A stretch of DNA of 64,000 bases, taken from the NCBI GenBank assembly GCA_050287085.1, contig JBNKBE010000011.1:128001-192000 (forward strand), given 5' to 3'. Position 1 is the first letter of the stretch; every line of letters starts with the position of its first letter. This DNA comes from Polyangiaceae bacterium. Lineage in GTDB: Bacteria > Myxococcota_A > Polyangia > Polyangiales > Polyangiaceae. Below, piece after piece: positions 45,755-53,539 of this stretch. The notes below the pieces were generated by a model. The model was not told where the DNA came from. It saw nothing but the letters and a program-made list of their open reading frames with translations, and did no database searches. Made by a program: the position numbers and the translations under genes.

Positions 45755-46675
45755 TCACGGCTCGGCAAGCAGTTGCTCCACGCTCGACTCAAAACGCTCG
45801 AGCTCAGGACCGCTAACGCCCACCATCAGGTCGTTCACAATCCCCCGCTTGTCGATCGCAAAAACAAGCGGCAGCGAATAGGCGCTATAGGCATCTGATA
45901 TCTTGCCGCCTTCATCCCACAAGACTGGGTAACGCAACCCCAGCGACGCCGCATCGCGAGTCGCCTGTTCAAAGGGGTCCAGCGTTACCCCAATCACGGA
46001 AACACCGAGGGCACGGCGCTCGTGCCAGGCGTTGAGATGAGGCGTCAAGGCGCGACAAGGACCGCACCAGGCAGCCCAAAAATCTAGCAAGACGACGCGC
46101 CCCTGAAGTTGGAGAAGGCTGGTGGGGACGTTGCCCTGAACAAGTCGCCCCGTGGACACATTAGGCGCGGGATAGCCCACGTAGTGCCGGCGCAGACGTT
46201 CGCTCAGCGACGGACGCGGCACCACTTGTATTCTCACGAGCCGCGCCTTGCCATCGCGCAGAAATGCTAGGCCCCCAACGTCCCCCGGGTGCAGCGCCGA
46301 AGTCACCCGCCGGAAGTCGTCCACGGTGGCCAGCGACTCCCCGTTCCAAGTCTGCAGCACATCACCCTCTTCCAACCCAACGCCTTCCGCCGGCGAGCCC
46401 CGTGAAACGCGTTGCAAGGTAAGCCCGGCTGCGGCCGGTCGAACCTGGAGCCCCAGCCAAGGCTCACCCGCGGAGGACCGCGCGTCGGACACACTTGGAC
46501 CGGCGGGCACCGCTTCAATTGTTTGGGGCAGCTCCGGAGACGCCGGCTGGAACGTGCCCTGAAGGTCGATGGGAGGTGCCAAGGGCAAAGCGCTGGGTAT
46601 GGCTGTAGCGGGATCTTGCCTGGGAGGCAGCGAGGGCTCGGAAGGATGGCAAGCGCTCAAGGCGAGTACTGCCAT
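45755..46675 (-). CDS. PDZ-TlpA/ResA thiol-disulfide oxidoreductase lipoprotein
   Basis: LSAC lipobox, WLGL..SPAE.VGL.EGDV PDZ, LDFWAAWCGPC. Confidence 0.85.
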   Translation of the reverse strand: MAVLALSACHPSEPSLPPRQDPATAIPSALPLAPPIDLQGTFQPASPELPQTIEAVPAGPSVSDARSSAGEPWLGLQVRPAAAGLTLQRVSRGSPAEGVGLEEGDVLQTWNGESLATVDDFRRVTSALHPGDVGGLAFLRDGKARLVRIQVVPRPSLSERLRRHYVGYPAPNVSTGRLVQGNVPTSLLQLQGRVVLLDFWAAWCGPCRALTPHLNAWHERRALGVSVIGVTLDPFEQATRDAASLGLRYPVLWDEGGKISDAYSAYSLPLVFAIDKRGIVNDLMVGVSGPELERFESSVEQLLAEP

Positions 46676-46717
46676 CAGGAGGTTGCTCACCACGGCCCGG
46701 AAAGATAGTGCTCTTGG

Positions 46718-47290
46718 ATGCGCCACGCGCTCGCCTTCGGATTGCTGCTGAGCGGCTGTACAGGACGTACGCCCTACCCGTCCAACATCGGATCTAGCCA
46801 CTATAGCGCGAGATCGGCAAGTGCCGACGAAAGCGACGCCCAATCGCAAGACACCGACGCAACCTCAAGACCGCGACACCGGGTGCGCCCCGACTCCGAG
46901 AAAACGCAACTCATCCCTTGGCCGCCCGCAGAAGGCCAGCGTCGCGCAAGCAGTCACGGCCCCAATCGTTGGTACGAAGTACGGCTACCGCGGGAATTCG
47001 GCCCGACCTACGCAGTGTGGTCACGCGGAGCTCAGGCTCCGGAAGGAACGCTCATCGCAGTAGCACTGGCGGCGAGTCCGGACGCGGACTTCGACGCCCT
47101 ATGGACGATGGTCAAGAAAGACGGTGTCTGGCGCTTCGAGGTTTGGCCCACTGATGGCAACAGCGCTGATTCAACCCCGCTCCGGAGTAGCGAAAACACG
47201 CGGACCACCACGCTCTGTCATCAGTGTCATAGCCAGGCGACAAGCGACTACGTCTTTGGTCCAGGCAGCTCGAACGGCGCTGAACGTTGA
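46718..47290 (+). CDS. Cytochrome P460/c'-beta family lipoprotein
   Basis: LSGC lipobox, PEGTLI, MVK..GVW.F, C-terminal CHQCH..DYVF. Confidence 0.65.
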   Translation: MRHALAFGLLLSGCTGRTPYPSNIGSSHYSARSASADESDAQSQDTDATSRPRHRVRPDSEKTQLIPWPPAEGQRRASSHGPNRWYEVRLPREFGPTYAVWSRGAQAPEGTLIAVALAASPDADFDALWTMVKKDGVWRFEVWPTDGNSADSTPLRSSENTRTTTLCHQCHSQATSDYVFGPGSSNGAER

Positions 47291-47294
47291 GCGC

Positions 47295-47655
47295 GCAAAC
47301 ACGGCTCAAGCGACAGGCAAACTAAGCGTAAGCGTTAAGAAAGGCTGTGAAGCGAGCCATCTCGACCGGAACCCTGACGCGGCTGGACGGCCGCAGCTGA
47401 CAGGGGCGCAAGACGGCAAGGGTTAGACCTGTAATTGGGTACTTGCAAGATGACGGCCGGCTCCAGAGCGACGACCAGGCTCAAGGCAAGAAAGAATGCC
47501 GACGGGATGACTCAACGCCAGCAATGAACCGAAACTAGGCAAGTTCGGCGGTGCAACGGTCCAGGAGCACCGCCGAAAAGGCAACCAAGGAGGAAATTAA
47601 GCGAAAGGTAAGAAGTGTGTAAGCTAAGCGACAGAAGATTAAGGAAGGTTGCACC
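47295..47655. ncRNA. Candidate structured ncRNA with about 17 YAAG (+) / CUUR (-) motifs
   Basis: No credible ORF, strong purine skew, perfect 11-bp hairpin 47544-47577, adjacent sigma54-like promoter; strand unresolved (minus favoured). Confidence 0.5.
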
Positions 47656-47664
47656 AAGGCCTTA

Positions 47665-47680
47665 AGCATAGGTCGTGCCA
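47665..47680 (-). promoter_or_regulatory. Sigma54 (RpoN) -24/-12 promoter
   Basis: TGGCACGACCTATGCT versus consensus TGGCAC-N5-TTGCW, correct GG/GC spacing. Confidence 0.65.
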
Positions 47681-47690
47681 ACCCCATCAG

Positions 47691-47712
47691 GCGCCAGAAT
47701 TCTGGCGCTTTT
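47691..47712 (+). terminator. Perfect 18-bp palindrome plus T tract (terminator or protein-binding site)
   Basis: GCGCCAGAATTCTGGCGC followed by TTTT. Confidence 0.45.
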
Positions 47713-48050
47713 AGGCTCGTACCTCGCCAATTCTCCAGTCCGTTGCGAACTTGGAGGAGTTTTCCCGGATCCTCATGTCATACTCGACCCCGCGTTGGGC
47801 CGCTCCCGAACCCATCGAAGCCCGCGAAGCCACGGGCCGCGGGGTGGTGTTTGCGCCGGAAACGGACATTGCCGCTAGCTCCACGACTCTCGTGTCCTAG
47901 TCGCCCCCGCGGGTCCTAAGACGCTTCCCTGAGCACAACCTGCTTCCAAGGCGGGCCAGACCTACAGCCGACCAAAGACTGTTTTTTGCCCCGAGCCAAC
48001 AGAAGATACTCGCAACCGCCCAAAGGCATGTTAGTAACCGCGCTCCCAAA

Positions 48051-48124
<74 letters not shown>

Positions 48125-48410
48125 CAGCATCAAAAAGGCCTGATTCGCTCCCCTTCGCGGGGAGCCCTGTTCACAGCCTGATAACACGCGAGGAAGCCTT
48201 GGCTCTCCTCGCGTTTGCACGTGAGGGGGTCGGAGTTCCCCGGGAGCGTGCCGAAGCATTTGCTCGCGCGGTTCTTGACCTGGACGACGCCAGCCGTCTG
48301 GCGTTGGCCGTTCTCGACGGCGGACTGTTCGCCGGTGCGCGACTGGTCGAGCTCGCGGCACTCGTGGCCGAACCGTCCGCGGGGGCGGATGGCGCGGAAG
48401 GCGCATCGTC

Positions 48411-49711
48411 ATGATGGCGCGAGCGGGCATCGTTCGCCCCTCTCGGGCGGCTCGGCGCGCTTGTAAGAACAAGGATAAGTCGCCGGAGACGGAAACGAGG
48501 CCCGACAGGGCCGGCCGTCTTCGGCGTGCGAAGGCACTACCCAAACAGGCTTGGGAAGGCCTACCTCCGTACGTCCAAGCTTGCGCAGCGAACCGCCACC
48601 GCAAGCGCCCGTACTTCCTCTACGTGTGGAACCCCGACAATCCAAACAAGAAGACCCGCATCGACTACTTCTGTCGCAGCTGGCGCTGCCCCTACTGTCG
48701 ACACCATGAGAGTCACGTCTTGTATTCGCGTGTCAGGGAGGCCTTCGAGCCATTCAACGCCGCGGACATCGTGTTCTTTGTGCTGACGCTCGACCCGAGG
48801 GAACACCAACGCGGCAAGACCGAGCTGACCCAAGTCTACAGGGAGTTCACCCGGCGCGGTGCCAATCTGCTCAAGCGTGTGCGACGCTGGATGACGAAGC
48901 ACGGCATGAAGCCGTTCGGAAGCGAGTGGGTCTCGACTATCGAAGCGCACAAGTCTGGCGTTCCGCACATCAACTACATGGTGCACAGTCCCGAGCTCGC
49001 GGCGTTCTTTCGGGCGGACGCAGAGTCGAGACGGGTTGCTGGTGAAAGCAGCGTCGAGTCCATCATCATCCGCGGCGAGCTGCGTCAGCACCTGGAGGCG
49101 TGCGGCTTCGGTTGGCGGTCAACCGCAGAAGCTGTGCGCCTCCATGGTGATGCAGTGAACGGCGTATCCAAGCTCGCGGGCTACATCACGAAGATTGCCG
49201 GCAACACGGAGAAGACGCACGGCGAGCTCGCCAAGTTGAGCCAAGTGCCATTGATGGCGCCAAAGAACTTCCGTCGACTCCGCTCGGGAAAGAAGTTCCT
49301 GCCCAAGCGCCGCAAGGGTGACGGGACCGGCGCTCTCCTCCGGCGTTACCCATCCAGGGAAGGCGACGAGGCGCCGAAGCGGTCACGCGCAGTTCCGACC
49401 CGGAGTACATGGCTCATGTGCGCGCTTGCGTGAGGCAGGAACAGGAACTGGTCTTCGAGGATGAGCGGCGGGTTGCGACGAACCGTTTCTGTGTGCGGTG
49501 GGGCCTGCCGCTGGCCACGGTGCCGCCCGTTCAGGCGTTCTTGTTGCCGCCGGTGAAGGTCTACGCGAAACCCGTGCCGCCCGCCGTCGACCAGCGCGAA
49601 CAGTGCGCGTTCGATTCACCAGTTCAGCTTGTGATACGGGTCAACGGTCATGCGCGAGGCGGGCGCCAGGGCTACGCACCGGCGTCGCTCTCCTTCGCGG
49701 GCTGCTCCTGA
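48411..49711 (+). pseudogene. HUH rolling-circle replication initiator with N-terminal Zn finger, frameshifted near 49375
   Basis: CRSWRCPYC, motif I FFVLTL, motif II EAHKSGVPHIN, motif III YITK; coding continues in another frame (AVTRSSDPEYMAHVRAC..) to 49711. Confidence 0.7.
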
Positions 49712-50166
49712 CGTGCGCCAACCCTCCCCCCCAGCTGGTTCCTCTTCTGAAACGTACCGATGTTGATAGTGGGCAGCGGAGGTAGCACGAGCCCGCCGGC
49801 GCCTGTCACCATCGCCACGTGAGCGCGAAAGTACGGGTATACAGCCATGCGGCCGACGTCTGTCAGAAAAGCGATAGCAGCACCGTCGTCTTCGTCGACC
49901 CGGCTGTAGTGCACAAGGTAGCGAGCCTTTACGACGAACATGGCCTCGCGAGCCTCGTTGTCCCTGATTCCGCGAAAGAGCCATTCGCAAACGCCGACGA
50001 CGGCGCCCTCGTTTGCCCGATGCTCCTGTTCGACCCAGTTGGTACCAATCTCCAACGACAGCGGCTCCCCTTGGGCATGCTCGGGCTTCAGGTCGAACTC
50101 CGAGTACACCAGCTTGAGCGCTTCGAGGCGCGCCTTCGCCGCGATGGACGCGTACGCTTCGCTCAA
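49672..50166 (-). CDS. SecB-like chaperone of a TAC system
   Basis: L.LVYSEF, F.VKARYLVHY, AVYPYFRAHVAMVT.AGGLVLPPLPTINI SecB signature; TTGA overlap with the antitoxin. Confidence 0.82.
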   Translation of the reverse strand: MSEAYASIAAKARLEALKLVYSEFDLKPEHAQGEPLSLEIGTNWVEQEHRANEGAVVGVCEWLFRGIRDNEAREAMFVVKARYLVHYSRVDEDDGAAIAFLTDVGRMAVYPYFRAHVAMVTGAGGLVLPPLPTINIGTFQKRNQLGGRVGARQEQPAKESDAGA

Positions 50167-50717
50167 GCTGCCCTCACATCGTTCGCGGGGTCAAAGTCGA
50201 ACTCGTATTCTGGCGCGGGTGACCAGACATGAACAGGCTCATGCCAGACAATGTCCTCTTCGGCATGAGCCGCCACCCTAACGCTCGCGGTGTCGTGCGC
50301 GCTCTCGCGCTGCAAGCGACGGTGCACCTCGGTAGGATAGATAGCAAAGGCTTCCAAGAGCCCTATGAGCGGCTCACTTGCTTCCTTCCGCCCCTTGAGC
50401 AGATGTGACAAGTACGTGGGAGTAACACCACACGCACGCTCGACGTCACGATTGGATACTCCGGCTTTCTCGTGAATGGTCTCCACCAAGAAGGTCAGGT
50501 GCGTTCGTTGGTCCGCCAGGTACGTTGGTCTGAGCACTGCCTTCGCTGCCTCGCGCAGAGACTCATCGAAGAACATCGCACCGCAGACGCTGCACGTTGG
50601 CACCTCAAAGCCCGTCGGCAGTTCGTACTTGCTACCACGGCGATAGGTGAACATGCGACCCTCGCCGGAGCGGGGCTCGATTCGTCCCTCTAGGCATTCG
50701 GTACAGATTTCACTCAT
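50163..50717 (-). CDS. MqsA-like antitoxin (Zn ribbon + XRE HTH + C-terminal extension)
   Basis: CTEC..CSVCG Zn ribbon, SNRDVERACGVTPTYLSHLLKG HTH, aromatic/acidic tail. Confidence 0.82.
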   Translation of the reverse strand: MSEICTECLEGRIEPRSGEGRMFTYRRGSKYELPTGFEVPTCSVCGAMFFDESLREAAKAVLRPTYLADQRTHLTFLVETIHEKAGVSNRDVERACGVTPTYLSHLLKGRKEASEPLIGLLEAFAIYPTEVHRRLQRESAHDTASVRVAAHAEEDIVWHEPVHVWSPAPEYEFDFDPANDVRAA

Positions 50718-51126
50718 CGTCTTCCTCTTCGTAGTCCAGGACGGTGGTCCTCAGGACGGTTTGGTCTGCAAGGCGTATCTCTCGGGTTGGATGAAAGGAC
50801 AAGAACCACTTCTTGCTACTGAGGCCTTCGCCCAGACGGACGCCGAGCTTGATGTACCAGGCGTATTCTTCCTCTGAGCGGCCACCAAAAGCGTCGCGCA
50901 TGATTCCGTAGACGTCGGCGCACGGCTCGTATTCGGCTCCAGGTTGGGGCCAGTTGCCGCAGAAGTCAGAAGGGTCTAGCTGGCGACATATCTTCTTCAC
51001 GACCTGCATGTACTCGTCCCCCAAGAGTCCAATAAGTCGCTCCACCCGGGCCTCGCTGATGCGAAGCTCGACTGCGCCGCTTGCTATACCGGCCTTCAAT
51101 GCGGCCAAATCGTGGAGCGGCTTCAA
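50710..51126 (-). CDS. MqsR-like (RelE-fold) toxin
   Basis: P.HDL..LK, L.P.DF, DVYG, WYIKL, FLSFH; first gene of the operon, overlapping the antitoxin. Confidence 0.75.
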   Translation of the reverse strand: MKPLHDLAALKAGIASGAVELRISEARVERLIGLLGDEYMQVVKKICRQLDPSDFCGNWPQPGAEYEPCADVYGIMRDAFGGRSEEEYAWYIKLGVRLGEGLSSKKWFLSFHPTREIRLADQTVLRTTVLDYEEEDDE

Positions 51127-51143
51127 CCTGGCCTGTGCCCTTC

Positions 51144-51171
51144 ACTATAGGGTGCATTGTACTCAGTACAA
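51144..51171 (-). promoter_or_regulatory. Sigma70-like promoter of the TAC operon overlapped by a palindromic operator
   Basis: TTGTAC-N16-TATAGT; palindrome TTGTACT-N-AGTACAA at 51157-51171. Confidence 0.6.
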
Positions 51172-51331
51172 CCCATGACGACCGATTTGTCCAAAACGTT
51201 GAGGCTGCCCGCACCAATTCGGCCCGAAAGCCCCGCCCTGAAACGGTGCCCCCTGAACCCCAATTCAGCCTATTTGGCGCCGAATCTTGAGCGCCTGTCC
51301 AGTCTTTTGTGAGTTGAATCCGCTTAACCTG

Positions 51332-53500
51332 TCACGCCACCGCGTACTTGCTCTGCCCGTCGCCCCAGTAGCTCTCGTAGACGTGTTCGAAGACCTGACC
51401 GCACTTCTTGTCGTACAGGTCGTCGCTGTAGGCGTCGGGGAGCGCGTCGAGCATGTCTTGGATGCACGCGCGGACTCCGGCTTTGCGGCGCGCTTTTTTG
51501 CGCCAGTCGATGACTAGCTTGTCCGCCTTGAGCTTGCTCAGTAGCTCCTTGGACAGATCTTTCACCAGCTGCCGGTCCTTCTTGGTCAACTCGACGCTCG
51601 GCTTGGTGAGCAGGTCGAAGACCGCGAGCTCTTCCACGCTGAGCCCCTCCTTGACGTGGCGCAGCTCTTCTTGGTTGAGCGACGCGATGAACTCCTTCAG
51701 CTGCTCGAAGGACTCTTGGACGTTTTGGGAGCCGGAATTGTACTCCTCAATGAGCGCCTGCAGCTTCTCGTAGAGGTCTTTGCGCGTCGGGTTCTGACGA
51801 ACAAGCTCGTCTACCTTGCTGGTCGCGGCTTGCTGCAGTGAGTTCAGTGTGGCCCGCTGGCTCTTGGACTTGTCGAAGAACGCCTTGAGCGCGTCGAAGT
51901 CGATTTGGCTCAGGTCGACGCGACGGCTCACCGGCGGCACCGAATCGGAGATGCGCATCGTCGTGGGCTCGGGGATGACATATCCGTGGGCGTCGATGGA
52001 CTCGTCAAGCAAGTGCTCTACTTGCTGCATGACCTGGCTGATGTCTGGGGGCGGTATGTTCGCTTTGATGGCCTGGGCTACGAGCTTGATGACATCGCGG
52101 TCCTTCGCAAAAGGGTCGACACGCTCATCCAAGCCGATGGCTTTGAACAGGCGCTCGATACGTCCGGCCATGGCGAGGTACTTGCGCCGTGTCTCATCCG
52201 GGAAGATAAGTGCCTCCCGCGCTTCCTTCAGTCGAGCGAGCCGTTCGAGCACCGAGCCGTCATGAACGGTGTCGAGCTCGGTGCCATTGTCCTTGGCGAA
52301 CGCTTTCTTGTCGCGGATGAGCTGCTCGAGTTCTGCTACTTGCTCATCCTTGGGCTTGACCGGTGTGTCGCTCGCGCTCGTGCCTCCAGCGCCGCCGTAG
52401 ATGGCGAGTGCCTTTTGCAGATTTCGGAAGACGCCGACATAGTCGACGATGAGTCCGCTCGGCTTGTCCGGGTAAACGCGATTTGCGCGGGCGATGGTCT
52501 GCATCAGCGTGTGGTTGCGCATCGGCTTGTCGAGGTAGATGGTTGAGCAACTCGGCACGTCGAATCCCGTGAGCCACATGGCGCAAACGAACACGATACG
52601 GAGCGGGCCCTCGTCGTCTTTGAACTGGACGTCGATGCTCCCTTTCTTCATCCGCTTGCGATGCGGGGCGATGTCCAGGCCCTTCTCCTTGAAATCCGCC
52701 ACCTCGTTTTGCGACTCGGAGACGACAACAGCCATGTCGGTCTCGCGCATGAACTCAAGCTCGCGCTCGCGAGCCTGGCGCACCTGAGCGGGCGCGACCT
52801 TGAGCGCAGCCAACTCCGCTTCCAGCTTGGCCAGCTTCGCCTTCCAGGCGGCTTGCACCTTGTCGAACATGCGGACAGCGGTCACCTTGTCGATGGCGAT
52901 GACCATGGCCTTGCCGCGACTGTCGCAGTCGCCGAGCCCCATGTAGTGCTCGACGAGGTCCGCTGCGACGGTGTCGAGGCGCTCATCGCGCGTGATGAGG
53001 TGGTACTGGCGCCCGAACTCGCGCTCGACCGCCTCTGTCTGGTCTTCGTCCAGGTCGGCCTTCTCAACGATGTCCGCCAGCTGCTCCGAAAGCTCTTCGT
53101 TGCTGAGCTGGAGTTCTGGAATACGGTTCTCGTAGTAGAGGGGGACGGTGGCGTTGTCCTCGATGGCTTGGCGGAAATTGTAGATGGAAACGTAGTCACC
53201 GAACGTTTCGCGGGTCTGCTCTTCACCGGCCATGAGGGGCGTCCCGGTGAAACCGATGAACGCCGCGTTGGGGAGCGCGTGGCGCAGATTGCGGGCGAAG
53301 GTGTCGTACTGGGAGCGATGGGCTTCGTCCGCAATGACGATGATGTTGCTGCGCTCAGAAAGCGTTGGGTAGCGTTCGCCCTTCCGCTTCGCCTCTTTGT
53401 CGACCTGGAACTTCTGGATGAGCGTGAAGACGTAGCGATGATTCTCGGTGAGCAGCTTCTTGAGGTGGGCGCCGCTCGTGGCCTGGACCCCGACATGACT
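51332..53500 (-). pseudogene. hsdR: Type I restriction endonuclease R subunit, 5'-truncated
   Basis: TLIQKF, DEAHRSQY, FTGTP, MWLTGFDVP, LMQTIARANR, DUF3387-like tail; nuclease domain and Walker A absent; no hsdM/hsdS in window. Confidence 0.88.
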
Positions 53501-53539
53501 GGAGCTTGAATCCGGGGCGAACGACCTGGCCAAGAGGTG

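Follow-up and report, generated by a model that had tools for sequence, protein, structure and literature searches.

To our knowledge, only a few RNA systems that titrate proteins have been described in bacteria, and each of them marks a global regulator. CsrB and RsmZ are stand-alone small RNAs with many short repeated GGA motifs in variable number, which align poorly and end at an intrinsic terminator, and CrcZ and CrcY of Pseudomonas have a sigma54 promoter with an upstream activator site and bind Hfq through A-rich motifs. The Polyangiales include major producers of natural products, and we know of hardly any work on post-transcriptional control in this order. Among myxobacteria, the available portions of the published work describe Pxr (RF01812) of Myxococcus xanthus as a sigma54- and enhancer-dependent RNA that operates without Hfq, has a length of 108 nt with three hairpins, lies directly behind pxrR, and is reported for Cystobacterineae (PMC5568312, PMC10217877, PMC5684412). 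In Bacteroides, the corresponding portions describe FopS and GibS as small RNAs occupied without Hfq by the RRM protein RbpB, with a preference for single strands (PMC11697453, 10.1101/2021.04.27.441718).

A CUU-rich interval behind a sigma54-type promoter

We analyzed a stretch of 64,000 nt from a Polyangiaceae genome (the window), in which a preliminary description had marked the interval 47295–47712 as a candidate sigma54-driven sponge RNA on the minus strand built from about 17 YAAG motifs, that is, CUUR in the RNA. We counted 18 YAAG on the plus strand, 17 of them before 47660, which agrees with that figure; those at 47655 and 47663 sit upstream of the predicted transcription start, leaving 16 CUUR, eight of which are CUUA, inside the RNA. 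The earlier expectation of about two copies matches the mean over the genome (2.36 copies in 400 nt of one strand) but is too low for DNA of this composition, for which mononucleotide and dinucleotide shuffles give 4.8 and 5.9 copies, respectively; 18 copies were reached in none of 5,000 shuffles of either kind. No 400-nt window of the genome is denser in YAAG; one other reaches 18 copies, and it is an open, Lys-rich reading frame. Among the 49 strict sigma54-like sites of the genome, the promoter at this locus is followed by 11 CUU in the next 100 nt, and the runner-up by five. No reading frame is open across 47295–47712, as had been claimed, and the folding energy is unremarkable relative to shuffles (z of −0.64 for the minus and −1.32 for the plus strand). 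Rfam covariance models had no match over the interval at E values up to 10 or at 15 related loci, and the tmRNA gene sits on another contig, in line with the earlier statement that the region is not recognizable as tmRNA, RNase P, SRP, or 6S.

All parts of the putative unit lie on the minus strand. The putative enhancer (47767–47780) has two mismatches to the family consensus YGACA-N4-TGTC and starts 100 nt upstream of the TGGCAC of the sigma54-type (−24/−12) promoter (47665–47680), which predicts a start near 47654. The predicted noncoding RNA (47285–47654) would thus be about 320–370 nt long with a 3' end within 47285–47336. Its predicted 5' domain (47581–47653) is a 6-bp stem around a 60-nt pyrimidine loop, the six CUUR of which have predicted unpaired probabilities of 0.73–0.95; further 3', CUUR are predicted to be unpaired at 0.15–0.63, with one at 0.81. 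An 11-bp hairpin follows at 47544–47577 (arms 47544–47554 and 47567–47577), and a cluster of four CUUR lies near the 3' end (47307–47339). A hairpin over the stop codon of the convergent gene (47285–47310; no strand assigned) is a possible 3' end without a clear U tract, a clean terminator being absent in this genome. The promoter, the 11-bp hairpin, and the GCAACC/GGTTGC stem are all present where the preliminary description had placed them; the two helices are not kept as such in relatives, and the 11-bp hairpin is particular to this genome.

The alternative that had been offered, a plus-strand RNA ending at 47691–47712, found no backing: the palindrome followed by T4 exists on the plus strand between enhancer and promoter, outside the RNA, but it is single copy, has no counterpart in the 15 relatives inspected, and received no call in the terminator scan. 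The convergent neighbor (46718–47290, plus strand) encodes a lipoprotein with a weak match to cytochrome P460 (E value of 2.5e-4, below the curated cut-off), and a P460-like lipoprotein gene recurs downstream of the RNA within the family. Next to it lies a minus-strand gene for a PDZ and thioredoxin-like (AhpC-TSA/Redoxin) protein (45755–46849). On the other side, the divergent tRNA-Arg(ACG) gene (48051–48125, plus strand) serves as a synteny anchor within the family. The DNA behind this tRNA gene (48126–53533) resembles an integrated island with an ORF of 340 aa without a Pfam match (48411–49433), two further ORFs without a match, a gene for an HTH_3 protein (50163–50717), and an ORF (51332–53533) that we take to be restriction-subunit-like.

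Conservation in the genus, the order, and beyond

A BLAST-type DNA search of 61 genomes, which the preliminary description had proposed as a way to relatives, returned only the genome itself and one 24-nt match and hence no alignable relative, whereas searches by synteny and by pattern recovered the unit. This genome contains no paralog of the RNA. The tRNA anchor was applied to all 18 genomes of the genus set, and 17 loci had DNA upstream of tRNA-Arg(ACG). Because this set was picked by tRNA and promoter and not by motif, it provides a noncircular test of the motif. At 15 of these 17 loci a sigma54-type promoter faces away from the tRNA gene and is followed by a pyrimidine-rich stretch with motifs; the first 200 nt of the 15 stretches contain 107 CUUA versus 0.8 from distal flanks, and 13 of the 15 loci have the enhancer with two or fewer mismatches. 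In one further genome (G010) the unit lies 2.8 kb from the tRNA gene, making it the 16th carrier among the 18 genus genomes; the unit was not found in G002 and G012. A second palindrome, TATGCA-N4-TTGC, occurs 32 nt upstream of the enhancer (123–145 nt upstream of the promoter) in most genus members (L004–L019), is absent from the genome studied here, and is possibly a second activator site.

Outside the genus, a pattern combining promoter and motif matched in 89 of 251 genomes, chance matches among them, and sets of 30 and 40 matching loci were examined individually. The enhancer, which the pattern did not ask for, was present at two or fewer mismatches in 41 of the 48 matches with at least five CUUR (13 of the 48 being from one genus and some being coding), compared with three of the 20 matches with fewer than five CUUR and eight of the 82 sigma54-like sites of this genome. 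Using a lolA-like gene as an anchor added families f5, f7, and f22, in which the motif drifts to GCUUC; a lolA-anchored look at f11, f17, and part of f22 revealed the RNA in five of 20 stretches, all from f22. A conservative filter (at least six CUU, no ORF of 100 codons, and an enhancer where the flank allowed) retained 57 of 103 loci, which represent 10 families of the order, apparently the Polyangiales, together with six named records and, from the same class, a single weak locus. This number is a floor because the ORF filter also dropped plain members (e.g., L063, L103, L073, L074, and L141). Among 20 further enhancer-promoter matches, 12 are the RNA, one is ambiguous, and seven enter reading frames that mostly start signal-peptide-like or pilin-like. 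Six pattern matches (L041, L075, L082, L086, L096, and L101) proved to be mRNAs for exported proteins and were rejected as RNA loci; four of them (L041, L082, L086, and L101) remained in part of the motif counts and were excluded from the set of 47 RNAs described below.

Two neighborhoods are seen, tRNA-Arg with the P460-like and thioredoxin-like genes in this family and a membrane-protein gene with lolA in other families, and the orientation of the next gene downstream differs between lineages, being either convergent or co-directional. According to a heuristic terminator call, a hairpin with a U tract ends 41 of 56 RNAs at about 100–350 nt. The RNA is kept even in genomes of 2.7–2.9 Mb. One genome (G188) has two copies (L401 and L402), one of which is expanded by many CUU-bearing tandem units, and the locus L042 of G062 has 16 CUUR and a repeated 16-nt unit with no enhancer match.

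In the phylum as a whole, the enhancer-promoter pattern occurs in 164 of 401 genomes. Among the 30 loci listed from other orders and classes none had five CUUR, and most enter reading frames for exported proteins, including one Flp-type pilin (names read from sequence); the 16 enhancer-promoter loci examined from another class do not represent the RNA either. Among the 120 matches listed in a scan of all contigs, nine have at least 12 CUU within 250 nt; each of these carries the label Polyangiaceae, Myxococcales, Myxococcaceae, or delta proteobacterium. Two loci labeled uncultured Myxococcaceae (L192 and L277) were set aside as evidence for Myxococcales, the former because its neighboring lipoprotein gene is that of L051 from this order. 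The palindrome before a sigma54 promoter was also observed, without the RNA, in records of Mesorhizobium, Comamonadaceae, and Gammaproteobacteria (L190–L309). Comparison of these genomes thus indicates a unit kept order-wide; in the other classes sampled it was not detected, and there the shared enhancer would drive mRNAs for exported proteins. We regard it as a real and apparently undescribed RNA family: the literature searched, in which most subscription journals were outside reach, contained no description of it.

For the motif analysis we used 47 RNAs, leaving out nine of the 11 from an over-sampled genus as well as L139, with dinucleotide shuffles as the control. Relative to shuffles, the RNAs are enriched in CUU (668 vs. 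459), CUUA (201 vs. 61), GCUUA (98 vs. 20), CUUG (134 vs. 83), and CUUC (209 vs. 132) and are low in CUUU (118 vs. 180), an enrichment that is circular in part, since CUU content was a criterion in choosing the members. Closely spaced pairs are more frequent than in shuffles (CUU-N-CUU, 81 vs. 22; CUU-NN-CUU, 119 vs. 21; CUUCUU, 34 vs. 19). The repeated motif that had been written as CUUR (YAAG) is better written (G/A)CUU(A/G/C), often in pairs 4–5 nt apart; as had been noted, it is unlike GGA, which is depleted (78 vs. 105 expected; ANGGA, 10 vs. 17). Words complementary to Shine-Dalgarno sequences are also under expectation (CCUCC, 17 vs. 25; CUCCU, 20 vs. 34), and A makes up 14% of the RNAs. 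A motif spacing of 4–5 nt and not 3 is out of frame, and no ORF is conserved among the member RNAs.

The members share little beyond this motif. The most widely shared 9-mer occurs in at most 13 of 55 RNAs, no seed is common to the families, and the number and position of motifs as well as the RNA length vary, with tandem duplication of CUU-bearing units in L042, L288, and L401. Motifs are predicted to be unpaired at 0.61 versus 0.50 and 0.54 in controls, a modest difference. Within the only genus that can be aligned, 99% pairing is seen for two helices, and the helices of the best-aligned subgroup showed no covariation above shuffles (131 of 500). A loop with UGCCCGG is invariant in f9 (L056–L066, L102, L103, L169, L407, L408, and L410), and a CCCCGGGGAUGGGGUGC loop element occurs in part of f1 (L070–L074, L400, and L406). 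CCCGG is found in 29 of 55 RNAs (46 vs. 23 expected), and this second recurring element is absent from the copy in this window. The minus-strand, sigma54-driven noncoding RNA of the preliminary description is strongly supported by this comparison across the order, in which promoter and motif, whose conservation had been named as a check, are kept together with a phased enhancer and terminators, and we infer that the unit is transcribed.

The candidate activator and candidate protein partners

The distances between enhancer and promoter cluster at 66–69, 89–92, 100–103, 111–114, 122–126, and 136 nt with a period of about 11.3 nt (R of 0.67 for 23 distinct values; none of 5,000 random sets). Such helical phasing is expected for an activator site that must face the polymerase. 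The genome has rpoN and about 30 sigma54 activator domains. The available part of PMC2725144 gives an RpoN consensus and describes activator genes as often adjoining their targets. We used 17 activators of this genome as queries against genes located before enhancer-promoter units. The best match, with 48–60% identity, is a protein with FHA, GAF, AAA+, and HTH domains (C6:40802–42628), which matches the activator genes that directly precede the unit at six loci (four from a single family). Of 30 diverse genomes, 27 have an ortholog of this FHA-GAF protein, and its recognition helix, DPRT(I/V)FR, is nearly invariant across the phylum, as is the palindrome. Among 25 complete FHA-GAF loci, a sigma54 promoter immediately follows the gene at six, four of which also have the palindrome at one or no mismatch, compared with two of the 82 sigma54-like sites of this genome; 21 of the 25 loci have no enhancer-promoter unit behind them, and four loci in Gammaproteobacteria have the same palindrome beside other activators. 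We consider it likely that this FHA-GAF activator is the regulator of the unit. A candidate binding site and a regulon of exported proteins, pilins, and the RNA are predicted for a phylum-wide sigma54 activator. PilR was rejected as the activator, as the available papers gave no site and none of five pilin-like genes here has the palindrome within 400 nt. Orthology of the FHA-GAF activator to Nla18 was not established either.

Neither Hfq nor a cold-shock-domain protein was found in this genome (96.8% complete); 10 of 14 control genomes have the latter. The genome has CsrA and four RRM genes, three for single-RRM glycine-rich proteins resembling plant glycine-rich proteins and hnRNP A1 and one for a tandem-RRM protein, and RRM proteins may fill the role of cold-shock proteins. 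In the available parts of two reports, a Bacteroides RRM protein binds single-stranded RNA with some preference that includes a C/U-rich motif (10.1101/2021.04.27.441718) and an RRM protein of Bacteroides binds small RNAs in vivo (PMC11697453). RRM genes are phylum-wide (178 of 201), unlike the RNA, and no canonical RRM was found in the fragmented genome G043, which carries the RNA (L094). The tandem-RRM protein (C8:68877–69761, L037) was rejected as the partner: it is nearly confined to f1, f4, and f17, occurs in 17 of 42 genomes of the order, and went undetected in the carrier families f8, f9, and f22. The single hit outside the order (G342) is probably a mis-binned contig because it is identical to the copy in G129. 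Of 61 genomes from the order, only 20 have a CsrA, and none was found in the carriers G043, G044, G064, G067, G068, G074, G075, and G079; this distribution together with the depletion of GGA excludes it as the partner. The csrA gene of this genome (C21:43352–43539) is itself preceded by a sigma54-type promoter, and a loose enhancer match lies 76 nt upstream of this promoter. RRM proteins lead among the partner candidates, and their identification as the partner is tentative.

On the target side, sense and antisense occurrences of the motif in 3,568 leaders, based on rough gene calls, show no significant sense excess (11 vs. 9, 49 vs. 38, and 143 vs. 117), there is no motif excess near the start codons of this genome on the same rough calls, and the leaders of the RRM genes lack the motif. 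Because leaders and starts show no sense excess, mRNA targets of a CUU-binding protein are not visible in these counts. One exported-protein mRNA (L086 in G104:C131) has the same enhancer and promoter and a 60-nt CUUA-rich leader before a clear Shine-Dalgarno sequence; this mRNA may be a target of the partner protein, or it may point to how the RNA arose. Sense CUUA clusters also precede two exported-protein genes in this genome (C14:105500–105700, partly a tandem repeat, and C28:11650–11750).

Titration, pairing, and the known systems

Variation in motif number and position and tandem expansion fit a protein-titrating RNA, and depletion of GGA and of anti-Shine-Dalgarno words, together with the lack of CsrA in many carriers, indicates that the RNA is not a CsrB and is probably not a pairing small RNA. 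We therefore favor, with some reserve, a stand-alone, trans-acting noncoding RNA that acts as a decoy for a CUU-binding protein; the sponge of the preliminary description stands as the best reading, one that draws on the architecture of the RNA and on ruling out CsrA and anti-Shine-Dalgarno pairing. According to this model, the FHA-GAF-AAA+ enhancer-binding protein would bind the GACA-N4-TGTC palindrome and turn on sigma54 transcription of the RNA along with a regulon of exported-protein and lipoprotein genes. The RNA would display numerous (G/A)CUU(A/G/C) motifs, most of them unpaired and frequently arranged as pairs 4–5 nt apart, and would titrate a sequence-specific, single-strand RNA-binding protein off its mRNAs, a mode of action that CsrB and CrcZ achieve through different motifs; glycine-rich RRM proteins are the leading candidates. 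If the partner is an RRM protein, phosphothreonine input through FHA-GAF may induce the exported-protein genes and the RNA together, and the RNA may free mRNAs from RRM control.

A base-pairing small RNA that forms the noncoding arm of an envelope regulon, its C/U-rich strands pairing with purine-rich ribosome-binding regions in many mRNAs, is rather unlikely. It would account for a 13-nt segment (47585–47597) complementary to a full Shine-Dalgarno context, for UAAG at positions −20 to −11 of ATG starts (95 vs. about 25), and for the invariant loop of about 18 nt in one genus and the recurrence of CCCGG, and the available portion of one report describes pairing near Shine-Dalgarno sequences without Hfq for Pxr and MXnc1 of M. 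xanthus (10.1101/2025.09.11.675593). However, besides the scarcity of anti-Shine-Dalgarno words, the lack of a seed common to families, and the motif spacing, the 5' 70 nt of 10 RNAs, tested on rough gene calls, paired with 150 initiation regions no better than their shuffles did and no better than with coding regions, and start regions show no enrichment of AAGC and little CAAGC. Alternatively, the RNA may serve as a decoy or scaffold not for a regulatory RNA-binding protein but for a housekeeping factor, for instance Rho, ribosomal protein S1, a KH protein, or a nuclease (a ribonuclease or a toxin). Such a role would accommodate leaders without motif enrichment, the poor match to the RRM distribution, and retention in genomes of 2.7–2.9 Mb; the strict motif of 4–5 nt and its paired spacing suggest a sequence-specific binder instead, and we regard a housekeeping target as unlikely.

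Several families have a lolA-like or lipoprotein gene in the same orientation behind the terminator, and elsewhere the same enhancer drives mRNAs, L086 with its CUUA-rich leader among them, as would be expected of a cis-acting leader or attenuator of a downstream lolA, thioredoxin-like, or small lipoprotein gene. This is very unlikely, as the next gene is convergent here, in other family members, and in the largest genus sampled, and the intact unit has moved between at least two neighborhoods. The least probable reading takes the interval for a plus-strand RNA, the remains of a gene, or low-complexity DNA without function: relatives without alignable sequence and folding no better than shuffles would fit, but the minus strand has retained its promoter, phased enhancer, motif, and terminators throughout the order, no ORF is conserved, and the motif spacing is out of frame.

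As a protein-titrating RNA with a new motif and an order-wide distribution, it would point to an unrecognized global RNA-binding protein in myxobacteria without Hfq, offering both a bait for finding this partner and its likely motif. Because the family is invisible to BLAST and Rfam, it also represents a class of RNA that alignment-based screens miss.

Like CsrB and RsmZ, the RNA consists of short motifs repeated in variable number, aligns poorly, and usually has a terminator; unlike them, it carries CUU motifs with GGA and ANGGA depleted, has a sigma54-type promoter and no Rfam match, and occurs in many genomes that lack CsrA even though CsrA is present here. It resembles CrcZ in its sigma54-type promoter with an upstream site, its length of about 370 nt, and its repeated motifs, and differs from CrcZ and CrcY in being A-poor, in a genome in which Hfq was not found, with an activator candidate that has FHA and GAF domains and no receiver. 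With Pxr it shares a myxobacterial host in which Hfq was not found, a sigma54-type promoter, and an enhancer; unlike Pxr, it is longer, built from repeats, and not adjacent to its activator, no activator gene being found beside member loci save one weak match at L081. The Pxr model RF01812 had no match in 16 loci (this window and 15 related ones) or, in scans without a positive control, genome-wide in 141 and five genomes. MXnc1 of M. xanthus, as far as the available part of its description goes (10.1101/2025.09.11.675593), could be related to the CUU RNA. A candidate RRM partner in a bacterium in which Hfq was not found recalls FopS and GibS with RbpB, but the FopS RNAs share a long seed and pair, and the available parts of those reports do not describe titration of the RRM protein. 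A first dedicated sponge for bacterial RRM proteins, and with it a third titration system beside Csr and CrcZ-Hfq, is a possibility that we put forward with considerable doubt. Judged by its sequence features, the unit appears to be built like CsrB and CrcZ while belonging to neither of these families nor to that of Pxr.
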